Shown: in pieces, positions 9,452 through 21,306 of the stretch
Numbering within the stretch: position 1 is the first letter of the stretch
Layout of the letters: the number at the start of each line of letters is the position of its first letter
Assembly: GCA_003151795.1 (NCBI GenBank)
Contig: PLYL01000008.1
Location: 3,103-67,102, forward strand
Length of the DNA: 64,000 nt
Source of the DNA: Candidatus Yanofskybacteria bacterium
Lineage (GTDB): Bacteria; Patescibacteriota; Minisyncoccia; 2-02-FULL-40-12; GWA2-44-9
Direction: 5' to 3'
The notes under the pieces: model-generated
Databases searched by the model: none
Seen by the model: the letters and a program-made list of their open reading frames with translations, nothing else
Told to the model about the DNA's origin: nothing
Program-made: the position numbers and the translations under genes

Positions 9452-9820
9452 TTGTCAGATTTAGTCAAAATTGGTAGAGTAAAGCCCATGCATCGGCCCA
9501 TGCTTGTTATTTTGGGAATCGGAATTCTGGCCGCGATCGCGGTGGGGATTTTGATGTATTCGACCGATCCGTTTACGGCCAGCACGGGGATTAAGGCGCT
9601 ACTTTTTATTTCGGTTTTTATTTTGATTATGAGTGTCTCGGCCCTTGTGCTTTATGGAATCGCGGTGGCGTGGCATAACGGGATGCGATATTTTTTCGCG
9701 AACTATTTCGGCCCGGAAGAATCATATTTTAAATCAAGTTTTCAGGGCGCGGTATTGGTTACGGTAATAATGATGCTCGTAATCGGTCTGCGCCGATTCG
9801 GATTACTGCAATGGAAATAA
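9452..9820 (+). CDS. hypothetical membrane protein
   Basis: ORF with 3 predicted TM helices. Confidence 0.5.
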   Translation: MSDLVKIGRVKPMHRPMLVILGIGILAAIAVGILMYSTDPFTASTGIKALLFISVFILIMSVSALVLYGIAVAWHNGMRYFFANYFGPEESYFKSSFQGAVLVTVIMMLVIGLRRFGLLQWK

Positions 9821-10278
9821 AGGTTGAAAAAATACTTCAGAACAAAAATATAGGATATAAGTTAATAAAATTAAGCGAAGCTGCTTTTAGCGTGAGCGAT
9901 GTCATTAATAATTCAGGTGGTACCATCAACCCGAATGAGATTTGTAAAACAATAATCCTCAGGGGTAAAAAGTCTGGCAAAAAGTTTGCCGTCTTGTTGC
10001 GCGGTATCGATAGGCTGGATTTTTCTAAAGCTAAGAAGATTTTTGGGGAAGAAATGGCCATTGCCACAGCCGAAGAGGTTTTAGAAGCTAGCGGTGTTGA
10101 GCCTGGTGCGGTCTGCCCTTTTTTATTGAATGTGGCGCTGTTTATAGATAATAAAGTCCTGGACTTGGAAACGGTTAACTGTGGCTCCGGCGACCATTTA
10201 TACGGCATAGAATTTAAGTTGAAAGACCTTTTAAACAATTTAGATCATCAGACAATTGATATTTCTAAAACTCTCTAA
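9811..10278 (+). CDS. YbaK/ProX-like aminoacyl-tRNA deacylase domain protein
   Basis: similarity pattern to YbaK deacylase (…ICKTIILRGKK…GVEPGAVCPF…). Confidence 0.6.
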   Translation: MEIKVEKILQNKNIGYKLIKLSEAAFSVSDVINNSGGTINPNEICKTIILRGKKSGKKFAVLLRGIDRLDFSKAKKIFGEEMAIATAEEVLEASGVEPGAVCPFLLNVALFIDNKVLDLETVNCGSGDHLYGIEFKLKDLLNNLDHQTIDISKTL

Positions 10279-10290
10279 ATTTCTCAGGAT

Positions 10291-10319
10291 TTGCTATAAA
10301 AGTAGCCATGTGGTAGAAT
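10291..10319 (+). promoter_or_regulatory. putative promoter (-35 ttgcta, 17 bp, -10 tagaat) of a short ORF-poor transcript
   Basis: hexamers and spacing read directly. Confidence 0.35.
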
Positions 10320-10435
10320 TAGACCAATGTCAGCTAAATTCATAACAACTGCATATTGGCTCAGCTTGCACTTTACCCCTGCCAATCGGGAGTTGTTTAG
10401 AATTTCTTCGTAAAATATCGTTAGTCCAAGGATAT

Positions 10436-10472
10436 TCTCAACAACCCCTGATTCCCGGGGGTTGTTTGTTTG
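10436..10472 (+). terminator. intrinsic terminator-like hairpin (aacaacccc/ggggttgtt + tgttt); coordinates +/-1
   Basis: 9-bp GC-rich stem followed by T-rich tract, ~145 nt downstream of the promoter above. Confidence 0.45.
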
Positions 10473-10483
10473 AGAGGTGAAGA

Positions 10484-11386
10484 GTGCTTACAACAGAGAT
10501 GATTGGCTCGTCGCACGAAACCGCCATGAATTCCGGGGTTGTCGAACTCCCTGGTCGTATCGTTCAGAGTGGACCCGTGTTCTATGGCACATCGGATCCA
10601 GTTCCAAATGTTTCGGAACTAATCTTGACGGCTATCGTGGCAATTCTGTGCCAACAGCCAGCTAAGTTTTCGGTCTATCGAGGTGGTCGAACTGAATACG
10701 CGAAGGCCTCGGAGCGCTATTCCAGGAATTTGGTTGATGCGGGGATTGTGCCATCGGTGGATGAAGCCATTCGTATCGTGGGAGAGTGGTTCGGCCTGCG
10801 GATCAATGTCGTTTCCTTCGAGACGATCATGGAGGCCGGCGGTATATGGAATATGCCGTTGATTGAAATCGCACAGGCCATTCGAACTTTGCGGCCAAAG
10901 CCACTACGTTTTTGCTACATGCCCGAGATTTATGTACCAGACAGCCCAGCCAAAACGATCTACACCAACGATAAATGGTTGGAGAAGAATTCTCTAAAGA
11001 CAGTGGCCGATCTTCACGAAACGGGCGGCTGGTTATCGGGCGCTTCGATCCACTACTCGCTCCGGCGGTTCTCGGAGAAGTTTGCGGATCATATCCACGT
11101 CGTTCCATTCGGGACCAAAGGTGACGTTTATCGGATGTATGACGGAAGCGGTTCAAGGTTTGTTCTAGCTCCGGCTCTTCACATCCGTCCAGCAGGAGCG
11201 GAGCCAGAGTGGTTACCACTGGAATTGAGAACCTTCGCGGCTATCATTCAGCTCTGGCCAGAAGCTGAGCGAGTTCAGCTCCGAGATCGGCTTGTCTCGG
11301 AAGTCTCCAAGGGTTTTGAAGGAACGACCCAGAAAATTAGCTTGGAGTTTCGATCGGTTCAGGACTATCGAGTTACGATTGCCTAA
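10484..11386 (+). CDS. hypothetical protein (GC-rich relative to neighbours)
   Basis: 300-aa ORF, no recognisable motif. Confidence 0.55.
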   Translation: MLTTEMIGSSHETAMNSGVVELPGRIVQSGPVFYGTSDPVPNVSELILTAIVAILCQQPAKFSVYRGGRTEYAKASERYSRNLVDAGIVPSVDEAIRIVGEWFGLRINVVSFETIMEAGGIWNMPLIEIAQAIRTLRPKPLRFCYMPEIYVPDSPAKTIYTNDKWLEKNSLKTVADLHETGGWLSGASIHYSLRRFSEKFADHIHVVPFGTKGDVYRMYDGSGSRFVLAPALHIRPAGAEPEWLPLELRTFAAIIQLWPEAERVQLRDRLVSEVSKGFEGTTQKISLEFRSVQDYRVTIA

Positions 11387-11390
11387 CGAT

Positions 11391-11419
11391 TGTGGGCCGA
11401 CCCGTTCGGCCGGCCCACA
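11391..11419. terminator. hairpin tgtgggccg…cggcccaca between genes (terminator-like, no T-tract)
   Basis: 9-bp perfect inverted repeat immediately after stop of 10484..11386. Confidence 0.35.
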
Positions 11420-11434
11420 ATCAACTTATTAATT

Positions 11435-12154
11435 ATGAAAAAATCAAAAACAATTAAAGATAAACGAGCATTAATATTTACTGCCCACCCCGATGATCAC
11501 TTACTGTGTGCTGGAACATTAATGTTGCTCAAAGAAAAAGGTTTCAAAATAACCGAAGTTGTATTTACTGGTGGAGAACAGAGCGTATGGTTTGGTTCTG
11601 ATAATTCTGTAATTGATAAAGAGGCTCTAAAAAGTGAGCGAAAGAAAGAGATATCTAAAGCATCTCGTATTATTGGTATTGATGAGACAATATTTCTCGG
11701 AGAACCAGACAGTGAAGTCACAAGGAGTTTAAATCTTATTCACCGGATCATGGCTATTGTCCGAGAGGTAAGGCCGTCAATAATTTTCACTCTCCACTAC
11801 AATGATTATCACCCTGATCACCGAGCTGTGGCGACTATCGTGACCGAAGCGGTAGATAGAGCTTCGTGGTCAGTAGCTCCACATCTGGGAGAATCACACA
11901 GAGCGGATATGCTCCTGTACACTGATGGTGAATACCTATGTCGGGCAGATTTTCTTGTGGACATTTCTAAATTTGAACCAAAGATAGAGAAAGCGATGGA
12001 TGCTTATGGTTCACAGATGAGAGAGAAGCACAGACGATTGAGTCGTTCCATTAGGGCATACCGAGGATTCTTCAAGCGGTCTAATGTCGCTGAAGCATTT
12101 GAAATCGGCGAAAGATATCCGATTGATTTAGAATTATTTTCTCTATTGTCATGA
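11435..12154 (+). CDS. LmbE/PIG-L family N-acetylglucosaminyl deacetylase
   Basis: AHPDDHLLCAGTL and HPDHRA motifs; ATG 11435 preferred over TTG 11390 in track. Confidence 0.75.
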   Translation: MKKSKTIKDKRALIFTAHPDDHLLCAGTLMLLKEKGFKITEVVFTGGEQSVWFGSDNSVIDKEALKSERKKEISKASRIIGIDETIFLGEPDSEVTRSLNLIHRIMAIVREVRPSIIFTLHYNDYHPDHRAVATIVTEAVDRASWSVAPHLGESHRADMLLYTDGEYLCRADFLVDISKFEPKIEKAMDAYGSQMREKHRRLSRSIRAYRGFFKRSNVAEAFEIGERYPIDLELFSLLS

Positions 12155-13173
12155 AAAAGTTAAATCAAAAAATTCTGTTGGTCCACGACTACCCCGCACT
12201 ACATGGTGGAGGCGTTGTTCAGTTAAATTTAGATTTGGCAAAATCTCTAATCCAAAAAGGTTCACAGGTCACGATTGCCGTTCCAGAATATAACCCCGAT
12301 CTAAAGAAGTTGATAACAGAGAGCGACCAAATTTTGGTCAGCTTATCTAGTAAATTCAGAGAGATGGGTAAGAAATCGATTAGAATTGCTAGGGCTTGTG
12401 GTAAGCCTTACAAGGTTTGGTTACACACAAAATTGCCAGAAAATTATTGCGATTCTGAACAAGGAAAAGAAATGCAAAAAGTTTTATCTGATAAATTTTG
12501 CCTATCTTTTATTTGCGTTTCTCAAAGTGTCGCCGATGATATGGTCGCTAACTTTGGTTTTTCTTTGAAGGTAGCAGTTGTCTATCCGGGTGTATACATG
12601 GCTCAAAGATTTGAAGCTGACTCGCTGAACCTTGTGCTTAAAAGCGACGTTCTGTTCGCTGGAAGACTGTCTACTGAAAAAGGTGGCGATATATTTATCA
12701 GGGCTTTCAGTAAGCTTTTAAAGAATTCGCCAAATCTTAAAGGCGTGATTATTGGTGACGGGGAAGAAAAAAACTCGCTGGTTGAGTTGGCTTTTAATCT
12801 TGGAATTAAAAAGTCTATAACTTTTTTACCTGCGTGTAGCAGAGAAGAACTTTTCAAATACATCCGAAATACTCGTCTATTTTGTGTTTCATCTCGCACA
12901 GAATCTTTTTGTATAACATTAGCCGAAGCTCTTGCCTTAGGAGCTACAGTAGTCGCGCCAAACAGGGGTGGTCCGATTGAAGTATTGGATTCGGGAAGAT
13001 TTGGCTACTTGTTTAAACCAGAGGATCCTAATGATCTTGCTAGGATTCTTAAAGTGGCTCTATCTGAAAATCTATCAAGTAAGTTACTCCAAAAACTTTA
13101 TGTCATGAGACGATTTAATGCTAGTGTTCAGTTTATTCAGATGGCTAAGCTCGTAATATCGCCGAATTGGTAA
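12151..13173 (+). CDS. GT4 (group 1) glycosyltransferase
   Basis: C-terminal GT4 signature region (…FAGRLSTEKGGDIFIRAF…LAEALALGATVVAPNRGGPIEV…). Confidence 0.8.
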   Translation: MKKLNQKILLVHDYPALHGGGVVQLNLDLAKSLIQKGSQVTIAVPEYNPDLKKLITESDQILVSLSSKFREMGKKSIRIARACGKPYKVWLHTKLPENYCDSEQGKEMQKVLSDKFCLSFICVSQSVADDMVANFGFSLKVAVVYPGVYMAQRFEADSLNLVLKSDVLFAGRLSTEKGGDIFIRAFSKLLKNSPNLKGVIIGDGEEKNSLVELAFNLGIKKSITFLPACSREELFKYIRNTRLFCVSSRTESFCITLAEALALGATVVAPNRGGPIEVLDSGRFGYLFKPEDPNDLARILKVALSENLSSKLLQKLYVMRRFNASVQFIQMAKLVISPNW

Positions 13174-13270: not shown

Positions 13271-14401
13271 ATGAATATTACAGTTCCAGAAGATAATAAC
13301 CTGTTAGATAAAGTTGAGGCAAGGCAAGATGCTGAGGGTTTGCGAATCAAGCGATTCTTGGCGATGCCGGATCTATCGCGTACTGAAGGCAGTCCGATCA
13401 AGGAGGTTGTTGAACGGATTCTCGCGCTCCCTGATTTTGCGGGCTTGGATGTTATTGAAGTTCCGGAAATAGTGCCGACTGATATTCATTTTGATCTATT
13501 TGATTTTCCCGCCGATCATCCGGCGCGATCTAAATCCGACACGTATTACGTAGACGATAACCATATTCTTCGCACCCACACGACGGTGATGTGGTACTAC
13601 TATCTGCAGGATCCTGATGTTAAACGCCGTATGGCTGAGGGTGAGCCCGTAGGTTGTTTCTGTTTTGGCAAGGTCTATCGCAAAGATGAGATTGATCGGA
13701 ATCACATGAATGTCTTTCACCAGATTGACGGTTGGTATCTCGCCCCAAAAGATAAAAAGATAATTGGTGCGAAAGAATTAGAAGAGGCTCTCCGAGGAAT
13801 TGGTCGGGCGGTATTTGGTCCAGACACCCCGCTCAATATAATTCCGGATACTTTTCCATTTACTGATCCATCCCGTCAAATGGAAGTAGAAAAGAAGGGT
13901 GTCTGGCTCGAAGTCTTGGGGAGCGGTGTCGTGAAGGGGAGCGTGCTCGAAAAATTTGGCGTGGATTCTTCTAAATGGAACGGTTGGGCGTTTGGGCCGG
14001 GTATTGAACGTCTGGCGATGGTTTCCATGGAATTGCCCGATATTCGTTTGCTCTGGTCACAGGATGAGCGGGTGAAGAAACAGCTCAAGCTCGGCCAGAA
14101 ATTCAAAGAAGTTTCCAAGTACCCACCAATCGTTCGCGATATTTCGTTCATCGTCCACAAGGATTTCATCCCCAACAATTATTTCGATTTAATTCGCGAT
14201 ATCGGCGGAGATTTGGTGGAAGAAGTTCATCTTCTCGATAAATACGAAAACGCCGAAAAATTCGGGCCCGATAAAATCAGCTATACTTACCGTATCACTT
14301 ATCGCTCTATCGACCGCACTCTCACGACCGAAGAAATTGAGCCGCTTCAAGAAAGAGTAATCTCGGAAACCAAGAAACAGTTCCAAGCGGAAATCCGGTA
14401 G
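13271..14401 (+). CDS. pheS: phenylalanyl-tRNA synthetase alpha subunit
   Basis: class II aaRS motifs (FPFTDPS…; GWAFGPGIERLAM motif 3). Confidence 0.9.
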   Translation: MNITVPEDNNLLDKVEARQDAEGLRIKRFLAMPDLSRTEGSPIKEVVERILALPDFAGLDVIEVPEIVPTDIHFDLFDFPADHPARSKSDTYYVDDNHILRTHTTVMWYYYLQDPDVKRRMAEGEPVGCFCFGKVYRKDEIDRNHMNVFHQIDGWYLAPKDKKIIGAKELEEALRGIGRAVFGPDTPLNIIPDTFPFTDPSRQMEVEKKGVWLEVLGSGVVKGSVLEKFGVDSSKWNGWAFGPGIERLAMVSMELPDIRLLWSQDERVKKQLKLGQKFKEVSKYPPIVRDISFIVHKDFIPNNYFDLIRDIGGDLVEEVHLLDKYENAEKFGPDKISYTYRITYRSIDRTLTTEEIEPLQERVISETKKQFQAEIR

Positions 14402-14403
14402 TT

Positions 14404-15321
14404 ATGTATAAATATCATTTGCCAAAACCAATTATCATAAAGCTCAATGATGAGTCAGGTTTTCGGTTAAGACAAAAAGCGGCAGAACATATTTCCATAA
14501 ATCAAAATAAAACCGGCGCCGAGCGGGGAAGTTCCGAGGAGCAAGGCTTTGGGGCGCTCGCGGAGATGGTTATACGAAATAAATTGGGTATGCCGGAAAT
14601 AAATCCCAAAGACCATCCTTTAGGATATGACCTCCTACTCCCTTCTGGAATAAAAGTTGATGTTAAATGTCGCGGCGGAACATTACCGTTTAAGGAAGAA
14701 TACGAAAGTAGTGACGGTATCGCAAGGGAAGCAAAGCATAATTTCTTCGCGCGCCAAATGCATGACGAAAGACTGGACGCCGATATTTATGTTATGACCC
14801 ATCTTGAAACTCCCAGCAAAAGAGAACTCCCGGGTACGACCAGACAAAGAAAATGGATATTGTACGTTTGCGGATGGGTATCAAAAGAGCGGGTTGCGAA
14901 TGAAGGCGTTTATCTGCCGCGAGGCTCTCTCACTGAACAAGGAAGAACATGGTTTCCGTATCGCGGGCAAGAGATAGAATATTATAATCGTAATCTGAAC
15001 GGATTAGAGAAGATGGAAGATTTATTGAGCATTGAATTGCCAGACGTTGAGAAAGACAGAAATCATAAGGGTGATTTAAACTTAACTTCCGCCGACGCAA
15101 TAAGGATAGCCTATGATCTTATTGGCCGTGGAGTGTTAAACGAAAAACACCTTGCTTTTATTCAGAAGGAAGCGGGTATATCAAAAATCGTGAAACCGAT
15201 TCTGAACCCGAATCAATATTTTCACTTGCTGTACTGGCTTAAAGAAAAAGGCGCTCTGACTGAAGTAGAAATAAAAAAAGCGAAAGAGATCCTTAAAGAA
15301 GAACCTTTTGATGGAATTTAA
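14404..15321 (+). CDS. putative PD-(D/E)xK nuclease, candidate restriction endonuclease partner of adjacent methyltransferase
   Basis: 'GYDLLLPSGIKVDVKCRGG' fits D…(D/E)xK; AT-rich; convergent with MTase gene, 4-nt overlap of stops. Confidence 0.35.
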   Translation: MYKYHLPKPIIIKLNDESGFRLRQKAAEHISINQNKTGAERGSSEEQGFGALAEMVIRNKLGMPEINPKDHPLGYDLLLPSGIKVDVKCRGGTLPFKEEYESSDGIAREAKHNFFARQMHDERLDADIYVMTHLETPSKRELPGTTRQRKWILYVCGWVSKERVANEGVYLPRGSLTEQGRTWFPYRGQEIEYYNRNLNGLEKMEDLLSIELPDVEKDRNHKGDLNLTSADAIRIAYDLIGRGVLNEKHLAFIQKEAGISKIVKPILNPNQYFHLLYWLKEKGALTEVEIKKAKEILKEEPFDGI

Positions 15322-16433
15322 AATAGCCTACTTGTATTGGCTCTGTATTGAGCCGCCGCCTCTTTCGTTCTTTTTCTAGAAATCTCCACATAGTCAACCT
15401 TATGCTTTTTAAAGAGATAGACTTCTTCATTTTTCTCAATCCCAATAAATTTTCTTCCTTCCAAAACTGCCGAGACAAGAAAGCTTCCGCTCCCACAAGT
15501 ATTATCTAATACAATATCACCCTCTTTAGTAAAGGTGCGAACAAGATAACGGCCAAGCTCTATAGGTTTTTGTGTAGGATGAAAAACTTCACCTTCGCTC
15601 TCGGCGGTTTTAAAATAAACTACATCGGTCGGATACCTCTCACCGTTACTTTTTACCTCTACTGTTTTGAAGTCGCCGTAGCTTCCTGTTAGCTGATCTT
15701 TTCTGAATCCTTTATTGTACGGTTCGCCGTATGTCATTTGAGGATTGTAGATTGGCTGATTTTTGTAAAAGATACAAATGTCTTCGTGTTTTCGCAGCGG
15801 CTGTTTTTTTGCGTTCAAAAAATTTGTGGGCTTTGATTTAATCCAGGTAATTTTGTACTTGAAAAGTTTTGGTTTAGAGAGCATTAAGTTAGCCGTAAAA
15901 AGTCCTTGGCCCGTGAGAGCGATTGCCCCGTTATCTTTAATAATCCGCTCGTAGTGTGTCCATAGCTGATCCAGCGGGATCACGCTATCCCAATGATTTT
16001 GAGTAGTGCCGTAGGGTAAATCGCACAAAATCATGTCCACAGATTTTGAGGGTATATCCACCATTATTTCCAAACAGTCGCCTTTGATTACCTTGTTTTC
16101 AAAATCAGTGATTATTTTTTTGCTTTTCTCTACTTTTGCTCCTATTTCTTCCGCTCCCATATTTTTTCGTAGGTACCATAAGCAATAGGTATTTACTGGC
16201 AGGCCCTCTTGATTGGCGCGTTGTTCAAGTTCCAGATAAGAATCTGTTCCAAGTAGGCCACGTAATTCACTACTCCCAAAATTAGCAATATTTTTGTATA
16301 GATCTTTATTCCTTTCTCCAAAGGCTAAGATAAATCCCTTTGCTTTCGGGTTAACATCTTTGTAGTCGGGGAAATAGACTGCTTTGAAAGTTTGGTGACT
16401 CGGCATAGATATATTATAGTATGATACCCCCAT
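15318..16433 (-). CDS. site-specific DNA methyltransferase (N6-adenine/N4-cytosine, beta class)
   Basis: motif IV 'DLPYG' (DPPY variant) precedes motif I 'DNTCGSGSF'; 'HPTQKP' motif. Confidence 0.85.
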   Translation of the reverse strand: MGVSYYNISMPSHQTFKAVYFPDYKDVNPKAKGFILAFGERNKDLYKNIANFGSSELRGLLGTDSYLELEQRANQEGLPVNTYCLWYLRKNMGAEEIGAKVEKSKKIITDFENKVIKGDCLEIMVDIPSKSVDMILCDLPYGTTQNHWDSVIPLDQLWTHYERIIKDNGAIALTGQGLFTANLMLSKPKLFKYKITWIKSKPTNFLNAKKQPLRKHEDICIFYKNQPIYNPQMTYGEPYNKGFRKDQLTGSYGDFKTVEVKSNGERYPTDVVYFKTAESEGEVFHPTQKPIELGRYLVRTFTKEGDIVLDNTCGSGSFLVSAVLEGRKFIGIEKNEEVYLFKKHKVDYVEISRKRTKEAAAQYRANTSRLF

Positions 16434-16531: not shown

Positions 16532-19500
16532 ATGGCTGATAAAGAGCTCAAAAAATCCGAATATACCGCCAAAGATATCCAAGTTCTTGAGGGGCTGGAA
16601 CCGGTCCGGAAACGGCCGGGGATGTATATCGGCTCGACGGGCGTCGACGGCTTGCATCACCTCATCTGGGAAGTGTTCGACAACTCGATTGACGAAGCCA
16701 TGGCCGGCCACGCCCATCATATCGAGGTTGGGCTTTTGGCCGACAACAAAGTTCGCGTCGCTGACGATGGCCGCGGCATCCCGACCGATATCCATCCTAA
16801 GACCAAAAAATCCGCCCTCGAAACCGCGGCCACGGTCTTGCATGCCGGCGGTAAATTCGAACAAGGCGCGTATAAAGTTTCCGGCGGTTTACACGGCGTC
16901 GGTTTGTCTGTTGTAAACGCGCTCTCGACCTGGATGAAAGCCGAAGTCTATCGCAAGCCGGATATCTTCGCTCAAGAATACAAAATCGGCAAACCGCAGG
17001 GGCCGGTCAAAAAAGTCGGGACCACCAAAAAGACAGGGACGACGATTACTTTCCAGCCCGACCCGACTATTTTCCCCGATACAACCTTCGACCTGCCGTA
17101 TATTCTTAATCACATTCGCCAGCAGGCCTACTTGACCAAGGGCGTTAAGATTACCGTGACTGATGCCCGTAATCCGATTATTGTCGCCGGCAAAGATGGC
17201 AACCTGCCTGCCGGCAGGCAGGGAAAACAGGAAGCGCCGTTCGATTACACGTTTTATTTCGAAGGCGGGATTATGTCGTACGTTGATTTTTTGAATCACG
17301 GCGAAGAGGTCAAAAACAAAAACATTTTTTATGTCGGTAAGGAACAGCAGGACATGTTCGTCGAAGTTTCTCTGCAGTATATCGAAGAGCTCACGAGCCG
17401 AGAATTATCTTTTGCCAACAACATCCATACGATTGAGGGCGGGACGCATCTGACTGGTTTTCGTACCGCGCTGACCAGAATTTTGAATGACTACGCGCGC
17501 AAGAACGGATTTTTGAAAGAAAAAGACGATAACTTGTCAGGCGAAGACGTCCGGGAAGGCTTGACGGTGGTGATTTCAATCAAACTTCGCGAACCTCAAT
17601 TCGAAGGCCAGACCAAAGCCAAGCTCGGTACAACCGAAGCCCGCAATGCCGTCGAGACCGTGATGACCGTTGAGTTCACGGACTGGCTGGAGCGTAATCC
17701 GAACGATGCTCGGGCGATTCTCGAAAAAGTTATCCTGGCCTCGAAAGCCCGTCTCGCGGCCAAAGCGGCTCGCGATACGGTGCTGCGCAAGGGCGCCCTG
17801 GAAGGCATGACCTTGCCGGGCAAGCTCGCCGATTGTTCCAGCCGGGATGCTTCGGAATCCGAATTGTTTATCGTCGAGGGCGACTCGGCCGGCGGATGTT
17901 TTTCGGGCGATACAAAAGTCGCTTTGCTTGATGGCAGGAACCTTTCGTTTAAGGAATTAGTAGAGGAGGACATGACTGGTAAGAAAAACTACTGCTACAC
18001 CATCAAAAATGACGGCAATGTCAGCGTGGCCCAAATTTTACATCCGCGAATTACTAAAAAGAACGCAGAAATAATAAGGGTTACTTTAGATAATAAAGAG
18101 GAAATTAGATGTACCCCAGATCATAAATTTATGTTGCGAGACGGGACTTATAAGGAAGCTCAATACCTAACAAAAAAGGATTCGTTGATGCCATTGTATA
18201 GAAGGTTGTCTAAAATCGCCGGTCGGATAACCATCAAAGGTTATGAGATGGTATATAATCCCGCCGAACATTATTGGCGGTTCACTCATGTTTTGGCGGA
18301 TCAATACAATCTTGCTCGAGATGTCTATACTCCTGAAGGTGGGGAAGCTCGGCATCACAAAGATTTTAATAAGCTGAACAACAACCCCGACAACTTGGTT
18401 CGTATGGGGAAACAAGAACATTTAATGTTTCATACGCAATGGCTTGAAAAGACAGCCCGAACACCGGAAGTATTAGAAAAACTGCGTAAGATTAGACAAA
18501 GTCCTGAATATCGCGCCAAAATAAGCCAGACCATGAAAATGCCAGCCATGCGGGCAATGCTTAGTGAACGCGCGAAGAAACAATGGGAAAATAAAGAATA
18601 TAAGGAATTTATGAATTCCAAGTTTTTAGAATTCTATAATTCCAATGAAGAATATCGAAAAACTAATAATAAACTTCTTAATAAAGCCCAAAAAACTTAT
18701 TGGGCCAGTAAAGACAATCGTCATGAACAGGCCAAGCGAGTTGCAGATTTCTTTGATAAAAATCCGGAATACCGAGCCTTGCTTTCTCAACAGGCGAAAC
18801 GGCAGTGGGACAATAAAGAGCTGGTGGCTTGGCGAAGTTTGGAGACTAAAAAACAGTGGACCCCCGAGTTCAGAGCCAAGAGAAAAGAGGCTTATAGCAA
18901 AACATACTTTACCCATACGATTAAATTTATGAAGGGTATTTTTGATCGGGATCATTTTCTTGATCAGTATGATGTCTTGAGAATTCAAAATAAAAGTCGA
19001 AATTTGTTACGAAGTGAAACATTCTGCCACAGGTTCTTTGACGACAATCCAACCGCCATGCTAGATGCGGTAAAAAACTATAACCATAAAATTAGGAAGG
19101 TAGAGAAATTAATTGAATGGACTGATGTCTATGATTTAGAAGTCTCTGGGACTCACAATTTTGCTTTGGCAAGTGGTGTCTTTGTTCACAATAGTTCCAA
19201 GCAAGCCCGTAATCGCCATACCCAAGCCATCTTGCCGTTGCGCGGGAAGATTTTGAATGTCGAAAAAGCCCGTCTCGACAAAATGCTCGCCTCGCAAGAA
19301 ATCCGCAATTTGATTATCGCTATGGGTACGGCCATCGCCGAGGAGTTTGATTTATCCAAATTGCGCTACCACAAGATTGTCATCATGACCGACGCCGACG
19401 TTGACGGCGCCCATATCCGGACATTGTTGCTCACGCTTTTCTATCGATATTTCCCGCAAGTTATCGCGGGCGGCCATTTGTATATCGCACAACCGCCGTT

Positions 19501-19933
19501 ATACAAAGTGCAAAAAGGAACCAAGATTCAATACGCATACAACGACGCGGAGAAAGATAAGGTGCTCGATATGTATCGAAAGGAAGCAGGCGAGAAAGCC
19601 GTCACCAAACCGAAAAAAATAAAAACAGACGCCGGCTTTGAAGTAACGGATCTTGATGGCAATGGCGCGGAACCCTCTTTCGCTGAAGCTTCGGCGGGCG
19701 AGGAAAAAATCGCTGGTGTTTCTCTCCAGCGTTACAAAGGTCTTGGTGAAATGAATCCGGACCAGTTGTGGGAAACCACCCTCAATCCCGAGAACCGAGT
19801 CTTACTTCGTGTTGATGTGAAAGATGCCCAAGCGGCCGACAAGGTCTTTGATATTCTGATGGGCTCCGATGTCATGCCCCGCAAGAAATTTATCCAGACC
19901 CACGCCAAGTCAGTAGTTAATCTAGATATCTAG
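16532..19933 (+). CDS. gyrB: DNA gyrase subunit B, interrupted in-frame by an intein
   Basis: N-term GHKL ATPase motifs; EGDSAGG|C…HN|[26 protein letters not shown]; C-term [10 protein letters not shown]. Confidence 0.95.
   Translation: [1133 protein letters not shown]
17897..19192 (+). mobile_element. GyrB intein (~432 aa) with HNH homing-endonuclease-like core and repeated basic motifs
   Basis: starts Cys (tgt 17897), ends His-Asn (19187-19192), +1 Ser; internal '[29 protein letters not shown]' HNH motif; repeats PEYRAK.SQ..K..W.NKE. Confidence 0.85.
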
Positions 19934-20209: not shown

Positions 20210-20276
20210 ATTTATCCGCCCGAGGCGGATGAGAAGTTTGCAACTACTCACTCCGTTCGCAGGCAAACATCACATG
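20210..20276 (+). repeat. 67-bp leader repeat copy 1 (palindrome ATCCGCCcGAGGCGGAT + conserved tail ending in ATG of nusG)
   Basis: 66/67 identical to 20823..20889. Confidence 0.85.
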
Positions 20277-20819
20277 CCCAAACAAGTTGAAACAGGACAA
20301 CGCAATTGGTTCGCGATTCATACCTATGCCGGGTATGAGGATAACGTCGCGCGCAATTTAACCCAGCGGATTGAGTCGCTCGGTTTTGAAAATAAGATTT
20401 TTAATGTTTTGGTCCCGAAAGAAAAAAAGATTCGCATCAAATCCGGCAAGCGCGAGACCATCGAAGAGAAGATTTATCCGGGCTACGTCTTGGTGGAAAT
20501 GATTGTCGACGATGCTTCGTGGTATGTCGTGCGCAACACGCCCAACGTCACCGGCTTCATCGGCGCCGGGACCGTGCCGACACCGCTCGCGCCAGGCGAA
20601 GTGGAAGTTTTGCTCAAGCGCATGGGCGTGGATGAGCCGAAATACAAGATTGACGTGGCGGCGGGCGACCGAGTCAAGATTACCGACGGGCCGTTCAAAG
20701 ATTTCGACGGCAAGATTGCCGAGATTGACCCCGAGAAAGGCCGTGTTAAAGTGCTGGTGACGATTTTCGGGCGCGAGACGCCAGTCGAATTAGACTTTTT
20801 ACAGATTAAAAAATTATAA
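20274..20819 (+). CDS. nusG: transcription termination/antitermination factor NusG
   Basis: NGN and KOW domain motifs; start at ATG 20274 (MPKQ…) rather than track 20229. Confidence 0.9.
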   Translation: MPKQVETGQRNWFAIHTYAGYEDNVARNLTQRIESLGFENKIFNVLVPKEKKIRIKSGKRETIEEKIYPGYVLVEMIVDDASWYVVRNTPNVTGFIGAGTVPTPLAPGEVEVLLKRMGVDEPKYKIDVAAGDRVKITDGPFKDFDGKIAEIDPEKGRVKVLVTIFGRETPVELDFLQIKKL

Positions 20820-20822
20820 ATA

Positions 20823-20889
20823 ATTTATCCGCCAGAGGCGGATGAGAAGTTTGCAACTACTCACTCCGTTCGCAGGCAAACATCACATG
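20823..20889 (+). repeat. 67-bp leader repeat copy 2 (ends in ATG of rplK)
   Basis: 66/67 identical to 20210..20276. Confidence 0.85.
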
Positions 20890-21306
20890 GCCAAGAAAAT
20901 CAAGACAATCGTAAAGTTACAGGTTATCGCCGGTGGTTTAGAGCCGTCAAAAATCGGGCAGGCTTTGGGGCCTCATGGTTTGAATCTCCAGCAGTTCATG
21001 TCGCAGGTCAACGAAGCGACCAAAGACAAAGCCGGCCAGCAGATTCCGGTCGAGATTACGATTTATGACGACCGGACGTTCTCATTTATTTTAAAGACTC
21101 CGCCGGCCGCTTATCTTTTGCACCGAGCTGCGGGGATTGAAAAGGGTTCGGGCGTGCCCAACAAGACTAAAGTCGGCACCGTGACCAAAGCCCAAGTTAA
21201 AGAAATTGCCGAACAAAAGATGGGCGACTTGAACGCCAACGATATCAATGCCGCCGCCAAGATTATCGAAGGCACCGCCCGCTCGATGGGCATCGACGTT
21301 AAGTAG
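20887..21306 (+). CDS. rplK: 50S ribosomal protein L11
   Basis: [17 protein letters not shown]… L11 N-terminus; start ATG 20887. Confidence 0.9.

Follow-up and report, generated by a model that had tools for sequence, protein, structure and literature searches.

The 64,000-nucleotide (nt) stretch of contig PLYL01000008.1 analysed here (the window), from a Candidatus Yanofskybacteria bacterium, carries a cassette of three co-directional open reading frames (ORFs) that fill positions 10484–13173. The first encodes an orphan 300-residue protein, hereafter X, the second a LmbE/PIG-L family deacetylase, and the third a GT4 glycosyltransferase (Table 1). Exact-sequence look-ups with the window's own proteins returned no match, and the closest relatives of the contig are metagenome-assembled genomes named Patescibacteria or Parcubacteria. 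X aligns with its homologs from residue 1 onward, which supports GTG 10484 as its start. The deacetylase, whose start is likely ATG 11435 (as in the public annotation P0004) rather than TTG 11390, scores 93.7 bits against Pfam PIG-L (PF02585; gathering threshold 28.2), and its AHPDD (11486–11497, residues 17–21) and HPDH (11810–11821, residues 126–129) motifs are both intact. The glycosyltransferase scores 119.8 bits against Pfam Glycos_transf_1 (PF00534; threshold 26.4), with the EX7E motif ESFCITLAE in the C-terminal domain (12901–12927, residues 251–259). With both scores above threshold and all these motifs present, the deacetylase–GT4 pair named in a first-pass annotation of the window is confirmed. 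A 4-nt overlap joins the deacetylase stop to the GT4 start, and the two genes appear to form a translationally coupled pair downstream of X.

The X family is rare. A word-seeded search of 5.8 billion proteins recovered three X proteins, and scanning 1.84 billion representatives in full with HMMER gave just 20 X clusters. A profile built from eight X sequences reached 54 clusters, all labelled 'hypothetical' and all devoid of a Pfam domain. Scanning GTDB genomes with window-type patterns gave one locus, which was already in our set; metagenomes gave 11 loci and viral contigs none.

The order X, PIG-L, GT4 is found in every related locus of sufficient length (L001–L005, L007 (twice) to L010, L013, L015–L018, L022/L023 and L024; L022/L023 come from a 556-kb Parcubacteria contig), and the outer neighbours vary. 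Two remote X homologs found only by profile search, P0139 (517 residues) and P0136 (426 residues), both have PIG-L directly 3′. The third gene encodes an APH-family kinase in one of these loci (L026) and a GT4 in the other. PIG-L is thus kept behind remote X proteins while the third gene varies, indicating that the link between X and the deacetylase is older and tighter than the link to GT4. The APH family includes anomeric N-acetylhexosamine kinases. A kinase in place of GT4 at L026 would therefore fit an N-acetylhexosamine substrate with a different aglycone. X is a conserved partner of the deacetylase/GT4 pair, not a passenger. L007 (1818–7200) carries two tandem copies of the whole cassette, each with leader, X, PIG-L and GT4. 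The two have identical leaders and deacetylases, their X copies share 68% identity, and the GT4 of the second has decayed.

The AlphaFold2 model of X, computed from a 46-sequence alignment, has a predicted local distance difference test score (pLDDT) of 95 and a predicted template-modelling score of 0.92. The best match among solved structures is BshC. It is followed by class-I LysRS (score 8.6), GlnRS, GluRS and ArgRS (6–7), CysRS (6.5) and MshC (6.2), with weaker matches (about 5) to cyclodipeptide synthases, PanC, ATP sulfurylase and NMNAT. An earlier and much weaker model from three sequences gives the same ranking. Foldseek retrieves mostly class-I aminoacyl-tRNA synthetases (aaRSs), plus a few weak Rossmann dehydrogenases, at E-values of about 1e-3. 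The core of X is structurally similar to the class-I aaRS-like HUP fold. The modelling thus robustly predicts X to be a divergent stand-alone class-I-aaRS-type (HUP) Rossmann domain, and its specific tie to BshC is suggestive only.

The strongest invariant motif of X, YG[TS][SA]DPxPNxxE (10583–10618), occupies the β1–αA loop, the site of HIGH in class-I aaRSs. Two further motifs are invariant, HxxGGWLxGxxIHxxLR (11015–11065) and PFxxKGxVY (11105–11131). The latter has a conserved K-G loop after strand 204–208, which by topology would take a KMSKS-like position. The invariant residues include D38, N42, E45, E113, H178, R194 and K212.

At the level of sequence, the 46 family members match nothing in Pfam (E-values up to 10), NCBIfam or PADLOC, whose hidden Markov models (HMMs) represent known anti-phage defence components. 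The family is absent from Pfam (2025) and NCBIfam (2026). X does not match the BshC family in NCBIfam at E-values up to 0.01 or in Pfam at E-values up to 10, and its profile, searched against PDB sequences at E-values up to 10, finds no BshC chain and one spurious antibody match. The first-pass statement that the 300-residue protein has no recognisable domain is accordingly right for its sequence and wrong for its fold, which is aaRS-like, and possibly BshC-like, in the structure prediction suggested there.

The family placement of the deacetylase rests on HMM scores, used as a proxy for phylogeny. It scores 99.1 against BshB1 (TIGR04001; equivalog cut-off 182.5), 74.6 against BshB2 (TIGR04000; 195.25), 39.9 against MshB (TIGR03445; 224) and 41.8 against Mca (TIGR03446; 277). 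The deacetylases of homologous loci likewise fall short of equivalog status, scoring 81–105 against BshB1. BshB1, BshB2, Mca and MshB are the best curated models of the deacetylase at all loci, and its nearest solved relatives are TT1542, BcZBP and BshB1. The top NCBIfam model for the window GT4 is MshA (TIGR03449), at 80 with a cut-off of 462.5; against BshA (TIGR03999) it scores 57.4 with a cut-off of 273.7. Membership of the Bsh or Msh families, which the first-pass annotation had considered, is therefore not borne out: every NCBIfam score lies far below its cut-off, in the homologous loci too, and X has no sequence match to BshC or MshC. By these scores, none of the three proteins is a Bsh or Msh ortholog. 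The analogy itself was a good lead. It prompted a search for a BshC- or MshC-like ligase, and the candidate is the upstream gene X itself, for which BshC is the top structural match and which is syntenic with the deacetylase throughout the superfamily.

The 205-nt spacer 5′ of X is more conserved in nucleotide sequence than the X gene, between loci whose X proteins are 52–60% identical. It contains a promoter, a short leader ORF and, directly against the X ribosome-binding site, a terminator hairpin. L001 and L003 conserve the −35 TTGC and the −10 element, and in all other loci the leader ORF is preceded by an equivalent promoter, TTGACA/TATAAT. The ATG of the leader ORF lies 7 nt past the −10 element with no Shine-Dalgarno sequence, so the mRNA would be leaderless or nearly so. 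The frame and the stop position are kept in L001 and L003, where a 6-nt indel of L003 is in frame. The 3′ strand of a hairpin inside the leader ORF (GGGAGTTGTT, ~10388–10397) and the terminator 5′ arm are complementary. In the window this leader–terminator duplex has an energy of −16.3 kcal/mol (z −5.5), matched by none of 300 shuffles. The terminator itself carries compensatory changes, CTAACCCC/GGGGGTTAG in L001 and CAGCCCC/GGGGGCTG in L003.

The same layout, in unrelated sequences, recurs in L010, nine AT-rich loci (L008–L025), L026 and L027. There, an ORF of 18–38 codons starts 6–14 nt after the −10 element, again with no Shine-Dalgarno sequence, and is followed by a terminator; five divergent branches keep both leader ORF and promoter. 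In every branch, complementarity links the 3′ portion of the ORF to the terminator 5′ arm and its upstream flank, with duplexes of −16 to −32 kcal/mol and z scores of −5 to −8 relative to shuffles (0/300 shuffles as good in six loci). In a nine-sequence alignment, 110 of 129 cells are paired and the pairing is kept by double-sided changes (GC/TA/AT at one pair, five types at another). The terminator stem covaries too.

Constraint folding with a simulated ribosome footprint was applied to the window, L001, L003 and L026. Free RNA forms the ORF hairpin and the terminator; a ribosome at codons 8–12 permits the long-range pairing, which consumes the terminator; and the terminator forms again when a ribosome stands at the stop codon. 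The short ORF, the mutually exclusive structures and the covariation together match the design of a leader-peptide attenuator, in which the position of the ribosome on the leader ORF probably sets X output. Translation of the leader ORF is supported only indirectly, by the in-frame indel and the conserved start and stop, with no Shine-Dalgarno sequence present. The terminator 3′ arm also has an upstream partner in some lineages, so that either state may be the one that reads through.

The Rfam 15 covariance models do not match the leaders. A T-box match at window 9758–9936 was rejected as chance (20.8 bits against a gathering threshold of 93, E 0.13, inside coding sequence). An attenuator specific to one amino acid was also rejected, as the branches share no enriched codon, and a P-A-x motif of the leader peptides was set aside as a by-product of GC-rich pairing segments. 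The AT-rich lineage alone has a second structured RNA, placed after the attenuator terminator and ahead of the X ribosome-binding site (L008 5068–5156, L013, L016, L017 and L022). It consists of UUGYCGC, a variable hairpin with compensatory changes, and GGGGCAAAUGCCCCGYGAAC, and has no Rfam match.

A GC-rich hairpin directly follows the X stop codon. Hairpins of −22 to −31 kcal/mol are found at this position in 10 of 10 loci checked, with a sequence that differs per lineage, and in AT-rich relatives a T-run behind the hairpin makes it terminator-like. Inspection found no R″/R′ core sites, and an identity as an integron attC site was rejected. X is thus predicted to form its own regulated unit, composed of promoter, leader ORF, antiterminator/terminator, X and strong hairpin.

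X also differs from its neighbours in composition. The GC content is 0.518 for X, 0.403 for the deacetylase and 0.386 for GT4 (window mean 0.477), in agreement with the contrast described in the first-pass annotation. X is richer in GC than its neighbours in 9 of 9 loci measured, and its GC content at third codon positions (GC3) is 0.48–0.55 whatever the host (0.73 in L003). In loci of 29–31% GC, the genes for the deacetylase, GT4, EF-G, S12, superoxide dismutase (SOD) and L25 all have GC3 values of 0.12–0.26. Horizontal exchange from a shared allele pool and mRNA selection are the candidate causes of this GC island. An overlapping gene was rejected, as there is no conserved alternative-frame ORF. 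The mosaic acquisition read from the GC contrast holds in part: the AT-rich lineage does exchange X alleles independently of the flanks, but the contrast is a family-wide trait, not an event at this locus.

Strains with leaders, deacetylases and GT4 genes that are 97–100% identical in DNA have X genes that are just 40–75% identical, with sharp boundaries. The X proteins of strains with such near-identical neighbour genes differ by 30–50%. Synonymous divergence (dS) between X alleles is at least 1 and often saturated, and the ratio of nonsynonymous to synonymous divergence (dN/dS) is 0.1–0.25. The X alleles are thus old and functional, and were either moved by recombination or preserved by concerted evolution of the flanks. 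Hypermutation or a diversity-generating retroelement as the source of the variability was rejected on the low dN/dS and on dS being saturated along the entire gene. Database-wide, the median pairwise identity in the AT-rich lineage is 93% for the deacetylase and 59.5% for X. The GC-richer lineage of the window is milder: relative to L003, the identity is 52% for X, 75% for the deacetylase and 46% for GT4. A diversity-generating retroelement (bAvd and reverse transcriptase) is located ~5 kb downstream of the cassette in two Hainich groundwater relatives (L003 15991–17353; L004 13576–14937); it shows no sign of X as a target.

Table 1 Features of the cassette and its leader (window coordinates unless a locus is given).
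Feature	Position	Strand	Description
Sigma-70-type promoter	10291..10319	+	−35 TTGCTA, 17-nt spacer, extended −10 TGTGGTAGAAT; promoter scan
Leader ORF	10327..10413	+	28 codons, MSAKFITTAYWLSLHFTPANRELFRISS
P1/P2 hairpin	10344..10397	+	AACAAC..ATTGGC / GCCAAT..GTTGTT; inside leader ORF
Terminator hairpin	10439..10472	+	CAACCCCTG-ATTCC-CGGGGGTTG, −14.9 kcal/mol, then TTTGTTTG T-tract
Shine-Dalgarno sequence of X	10472..10480	+	GAGAGGTGA; read from sequence
X	10484..11386	+	300 aa; orphan protein; GTG start
Post-X hairpin	11390..11420	+	GC-rich, −26 kcal/mol
LmbE/PIG-L family zinc deacetylase	11435..12154	+	239 aa; AHPDD and HPDH metal and catalytic motifs
GT4 glycosyltransferase	12151..13173	+	340 aa; GT-B, retaining; EX7E motif
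GC-island X genes, examples	L008 5157-5915; L022 10001-10729

We tentatively propose, with a little under even confidence, that the cassette is specific to Patescibacteria and makes an N-acylated, probably aminoacylated, glucosamine conjugate in three steps. GT4 would transfer N-acetylglucosamine (GlcNAc) from UDP-GlcNAc onto an acceptor. The LmbE/PIG-L zinc deacetylase would remove the N-acetyl group and free the 2-amino group. X would then activate a carboxylate, that of an amino acid, and ligate it onto the freed amine. Such a logic, in which a sugar is deacetylated and its amine is then re-derivatised, is established for bacillithiol and mycothiol. The gene identities, motifs, synteny, fold, covarying RNA pairings and hypervariability are what the analysis shows; the substrates, the reaction order, the ligase activity, translation of the leader ORF and the polarity of its switch, like every functional statement made here, are inferred. 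Given the hypervariability of X, a strain-specific product is favoured over a housekeeping thiol, and the alleles of X plausibly differ in the groups that they attach or have a role particular to their strain. The population data are fitted better by a strain-specific decoration or metabolite than by a cysteine-bearing thiol. On a bolder and unlikely extension of this proposal, X founds a polymorphic, horizontally exchanged ligase family whose alleles differ in the amino acid or acyl group, in some possibly cysteine, that they join to the glucosamine scaffold made by the conserved pair, giving bacteria of the candidate phyla radiation strain-specific aminoacyl-glucosaminides gated by a ribosome-sensing attenuator. 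The pathway logic is familiar; the candidate ligase X and its attenuator leader are new, and X is polymorphic and compositionally anomalous.

Several observations weigh against the three-step ligation model. X has no sequence-level tie to BshC, MshC, any PDB chain or any Pfam family, and motif comparison finds neither HIGH, nor KMSKS, nor an invariant Cys/His zinc cluster. At 245–300 residues it is about half as long as BshC, and it ends in a small β-sheet. The Foldseek TM-scores are low (0.27–0.43), and BshC is outside the top 50 in that search. The HUP fold also serves nucleotidyltransferases and the cyclodipeptide synthases that use aminoacyl-tRNA, so the ligase chemistry of X stays a candidate. 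The GT4 is generic, in that models of exopolysaccharide, protein-glycosylation and lipopolysaccharide transferases score level with MshA and BshA. The post-X hairpin separates X from the pair, so their co-transcription is not assured. In addition, the hypervariability of X is unexpected for a core metabolic ligase.

The generic character of the GT4 and the allele structure of X also suit a product of the cell envelope, in which the pair builds a glucosamine-containing glycoconjugate (glycolipid, wall polymer or protein glycan) and X is a strain-variable decorator under phage or host-recognition pressure. Ancient X alleles with the divergence given above are swapped between near-identical backgrounds, X is far less conserved than the deacetylase in median identity, the scores of polysaccharide and protein-glycosylation GT4 models are on a par with those of MshA and BshA, and the cassette of the AT-rich lineage has YkuD/M23 wall enzymes on one side and a glycoside hydrolase on the other. 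Neighbours, however, vary by lineage, the cassette has no linked gene for a flippase, polymerase or lipid carrier, and none of the three proteins has an obvious hydrophobic N-terminal or membrane segment as judged by eye. We consider an envelope product unlikely. A genuine low-molecular-weight thiol would be a special case of the ligation model, with X as a minimal cysteine ligase analogous to BshC and MshC and a Cys-glucosamine conjugate as redox buffer. The structural matches of X to BshC (top), MshC and CysRS point in this direction, as do BshB1 and BshB2 as best deacetylase models, an Fe-SOD gene three genes downstream in L022, and the fact that the literature searched gave no thiol system for Patescibacteria; nothing in it ties these bacteria to bacillithiol, mycothiol, LmbE clusters or any glucosamine-conjugate system. 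The cysteine reading is weakened by the hypervariability of X, since protein divergence of this order beside near-identical neighbours poorly fits a housekeeping redox enzyme, and by the lack of a zinc site of the CysRS/MshC type. All Bsh and Msh equivalog thresholds are failed, and about ten scanned window ORFs together with the Pfam-annotated locus genes include no bacilliredoxin, disulfide reductase or S-transferase. We consider a thiol product distinctly unlikely.

X could also act independently of the pair, as a translation-stress factor that works on tRNA or amino acids and is induced by ribosome stalling, with the adjacency reflecting a recombination hot spot. Points in favour are the separate promoter, attenuator and downstream hairpin of X, its aaRS-like fold, and a composition and evolutionary history unlike those of the pair; the leader peptides contain runs of I/L/V/F codons that recall the ilv and pheST leaders. 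U-rich sequence gives hydrophobic leader peptides anyway, however, and the X–PIG-L adjacency is kept in the homologs found only by profile, which is hard to explain without functional coupling. We regard independence of X as very unlikely. Finally, a promoter followed by a small ORF, a hairpin and enzymes is an arrangement typical of operons for ribosomally synthesised and post-translationally modified peptides (RiPPs), and the position of the small ORF is conserved in all branches. On this reading the ORF would encode a precursor that X, the deacetylase and GT4 glycosylate or aminoacylate, with the hairpin setting the ratio of precursor to enzymes. The peptides, however, are unrelated between branches, hydrophobic in AT-rich genomes and polar in L027, and L016 has a premature stop yet keeps the RNA pairing. 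The conservation is at the nucleotide level, with complementarity to the terminator; the recurring P-A-x residues sit in GC-rich pairing segments and may be a by-product of them; and no RiPP recognition element, protease or exporter is present. A RiPP system is highly improbable. Among these possibilities we retain the three-step ligation model as our tentative reading.

Directly 5′ of the leader, the window encodes a protein with a YbaK-type aminoacyl-tRNA editing domain (9811–10278, + strand). YbaK proteins deacylate Cys-tRNA(Pro). The neighbour is not kept in other loci, and its presence next to the leader is probably a coincidence. Downstream of the cassette, a single 376-residue chain fuses a PheRS α-type core to an FDX-ACB domain (13271–14401, + strand). 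This is the architecture of mitochondrial PheRS, not the usual bacterial α2β2, and no pheT-like gene was noticed in the window. An N6/N4 DNA methylase gene (15318–16433, − strand) converges on an orphan ORF of 305 residues with no Pfam match (14404–15321), and the two, in a low-GC patch (14404–16433), may be a restriction-modification pair. The GyrB ORF (16532–19933, + strand; 1133 residues) has an in-frame insert at about residues 440–830 that is intein-like in appearance; within this ORF, the GC content of positions 18001–19000 is 0.39. An 85-nt direct repeat, 91% identical (20210–20294 and 20823–20907), includes an CCGCCnGAGGCGG hairpin. The two copies lie immediately 5′ of, and extend into the annotated starts of, consecutive nusG-like and ribosomal L11-like genes, and could represent a repeated leader or promoter element.

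The leader of X resembles the trp, pheST, ilv and erm/cat-type leaders in having a promoter-proximal short ORF, the 3′ part of which complements the terminator 5′ arm, and in having mutually exclusive structures kept by compensatory changes. It differs from them in its leaderless mRNA with no Shine-Dalgarno sequence, in showing no obvious run of one regulatory codon, and in the upstream partner of the terminator 3′ arm in some lineages. Judged by its pairings and their covariation, it would be a well-supported case of leader-peptide attenuation on leaderless mRNA in Patescibacteria. The genes that it precedes show clear cassette-like allele exchange in uncultured bacteria, with X at a GC3 of ~0.5 in 30%-GC genomes and ancient alleles between near-identical flanks. 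This exchange points to strain-level chemical diversity.

GT4 and PIG-L/LmbE enzymes also install free-amine glucosamine on an acceptor in the pathways of the glycosylphosphatidylinositol (GPI) anchor (PIG-A/PIG-L) and of paromamine (2-deoxystreptamine aminoglycosides). Those modules, in contrast to the cassette, have no aaRS-fold partner, and none of their other genes is present here. X is similar in size to cyclodipeptide synthases and other truncated class-I aaRS-like enzymes (220–300 residues) and, like them, is a stand-alone aaRS-like Rossmann domain with no HIGH or KMSKS. Its structural score to cyclodipeptide synthases, however, is lower than to BshC or class-I LysRS, and no motif of these synthases is positive in X. 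We know of no cyclodipeptide synthase gene that is a partner of a LmbE deacetylase.

The mycothiol pathway (MshA, MshB and the CysRS paralog MshC) combines, as the cassette would, a GT4, a LmbE deacetylase and a ligase of class-I aaRS fold. The cassette differs in its low scores (80 against 462.5 for MshA and 40 against 224 for MshB), in the absence from X of HIGH, KMSKS and the zinc-binding cysteines of CysRS/MshC, and in that no inositol-phosphate genes were seen. In Patescibacteria, whose genomes are tiny and in which few biosynthetic pathways are recognised, a compact, self-contained cassette with bacillithiol/mycothiol logic would be a directly testable candidate of three genes.

Bacillithiol synthesis by BshA (GT4), BshB1/B2 (LmbE) and BshC (putative cysteine ligase) has the same three enzyme types in the same implied order, and among curated models BshB1 fits the deacetylase here best. 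The differences are that all three proteins of the cassette fail the equivalog cut-offs, that X is hypervariable and attenuator-controlled, and that the three genes are contiguous with the candidate ligase first. In B. subtilis, bshA and bshB1 are in one operon and bshC is elsewhere (PMC5372718, PMC5790435). BshC is ~540 residues long and has a C-terminal coiled-coil dimerisation domain (PMC5790435), which X, much shorter and with no detectable sequence similarity, does not have. A review states that the reaction of BshC has yet to be reconstituted in vitro and that its activated cysteine donor is unknown (PMC5790435). A minimal enzyme sharing the BshC core fold, as X may be, could serve as a simpler model of BshC chemistry.

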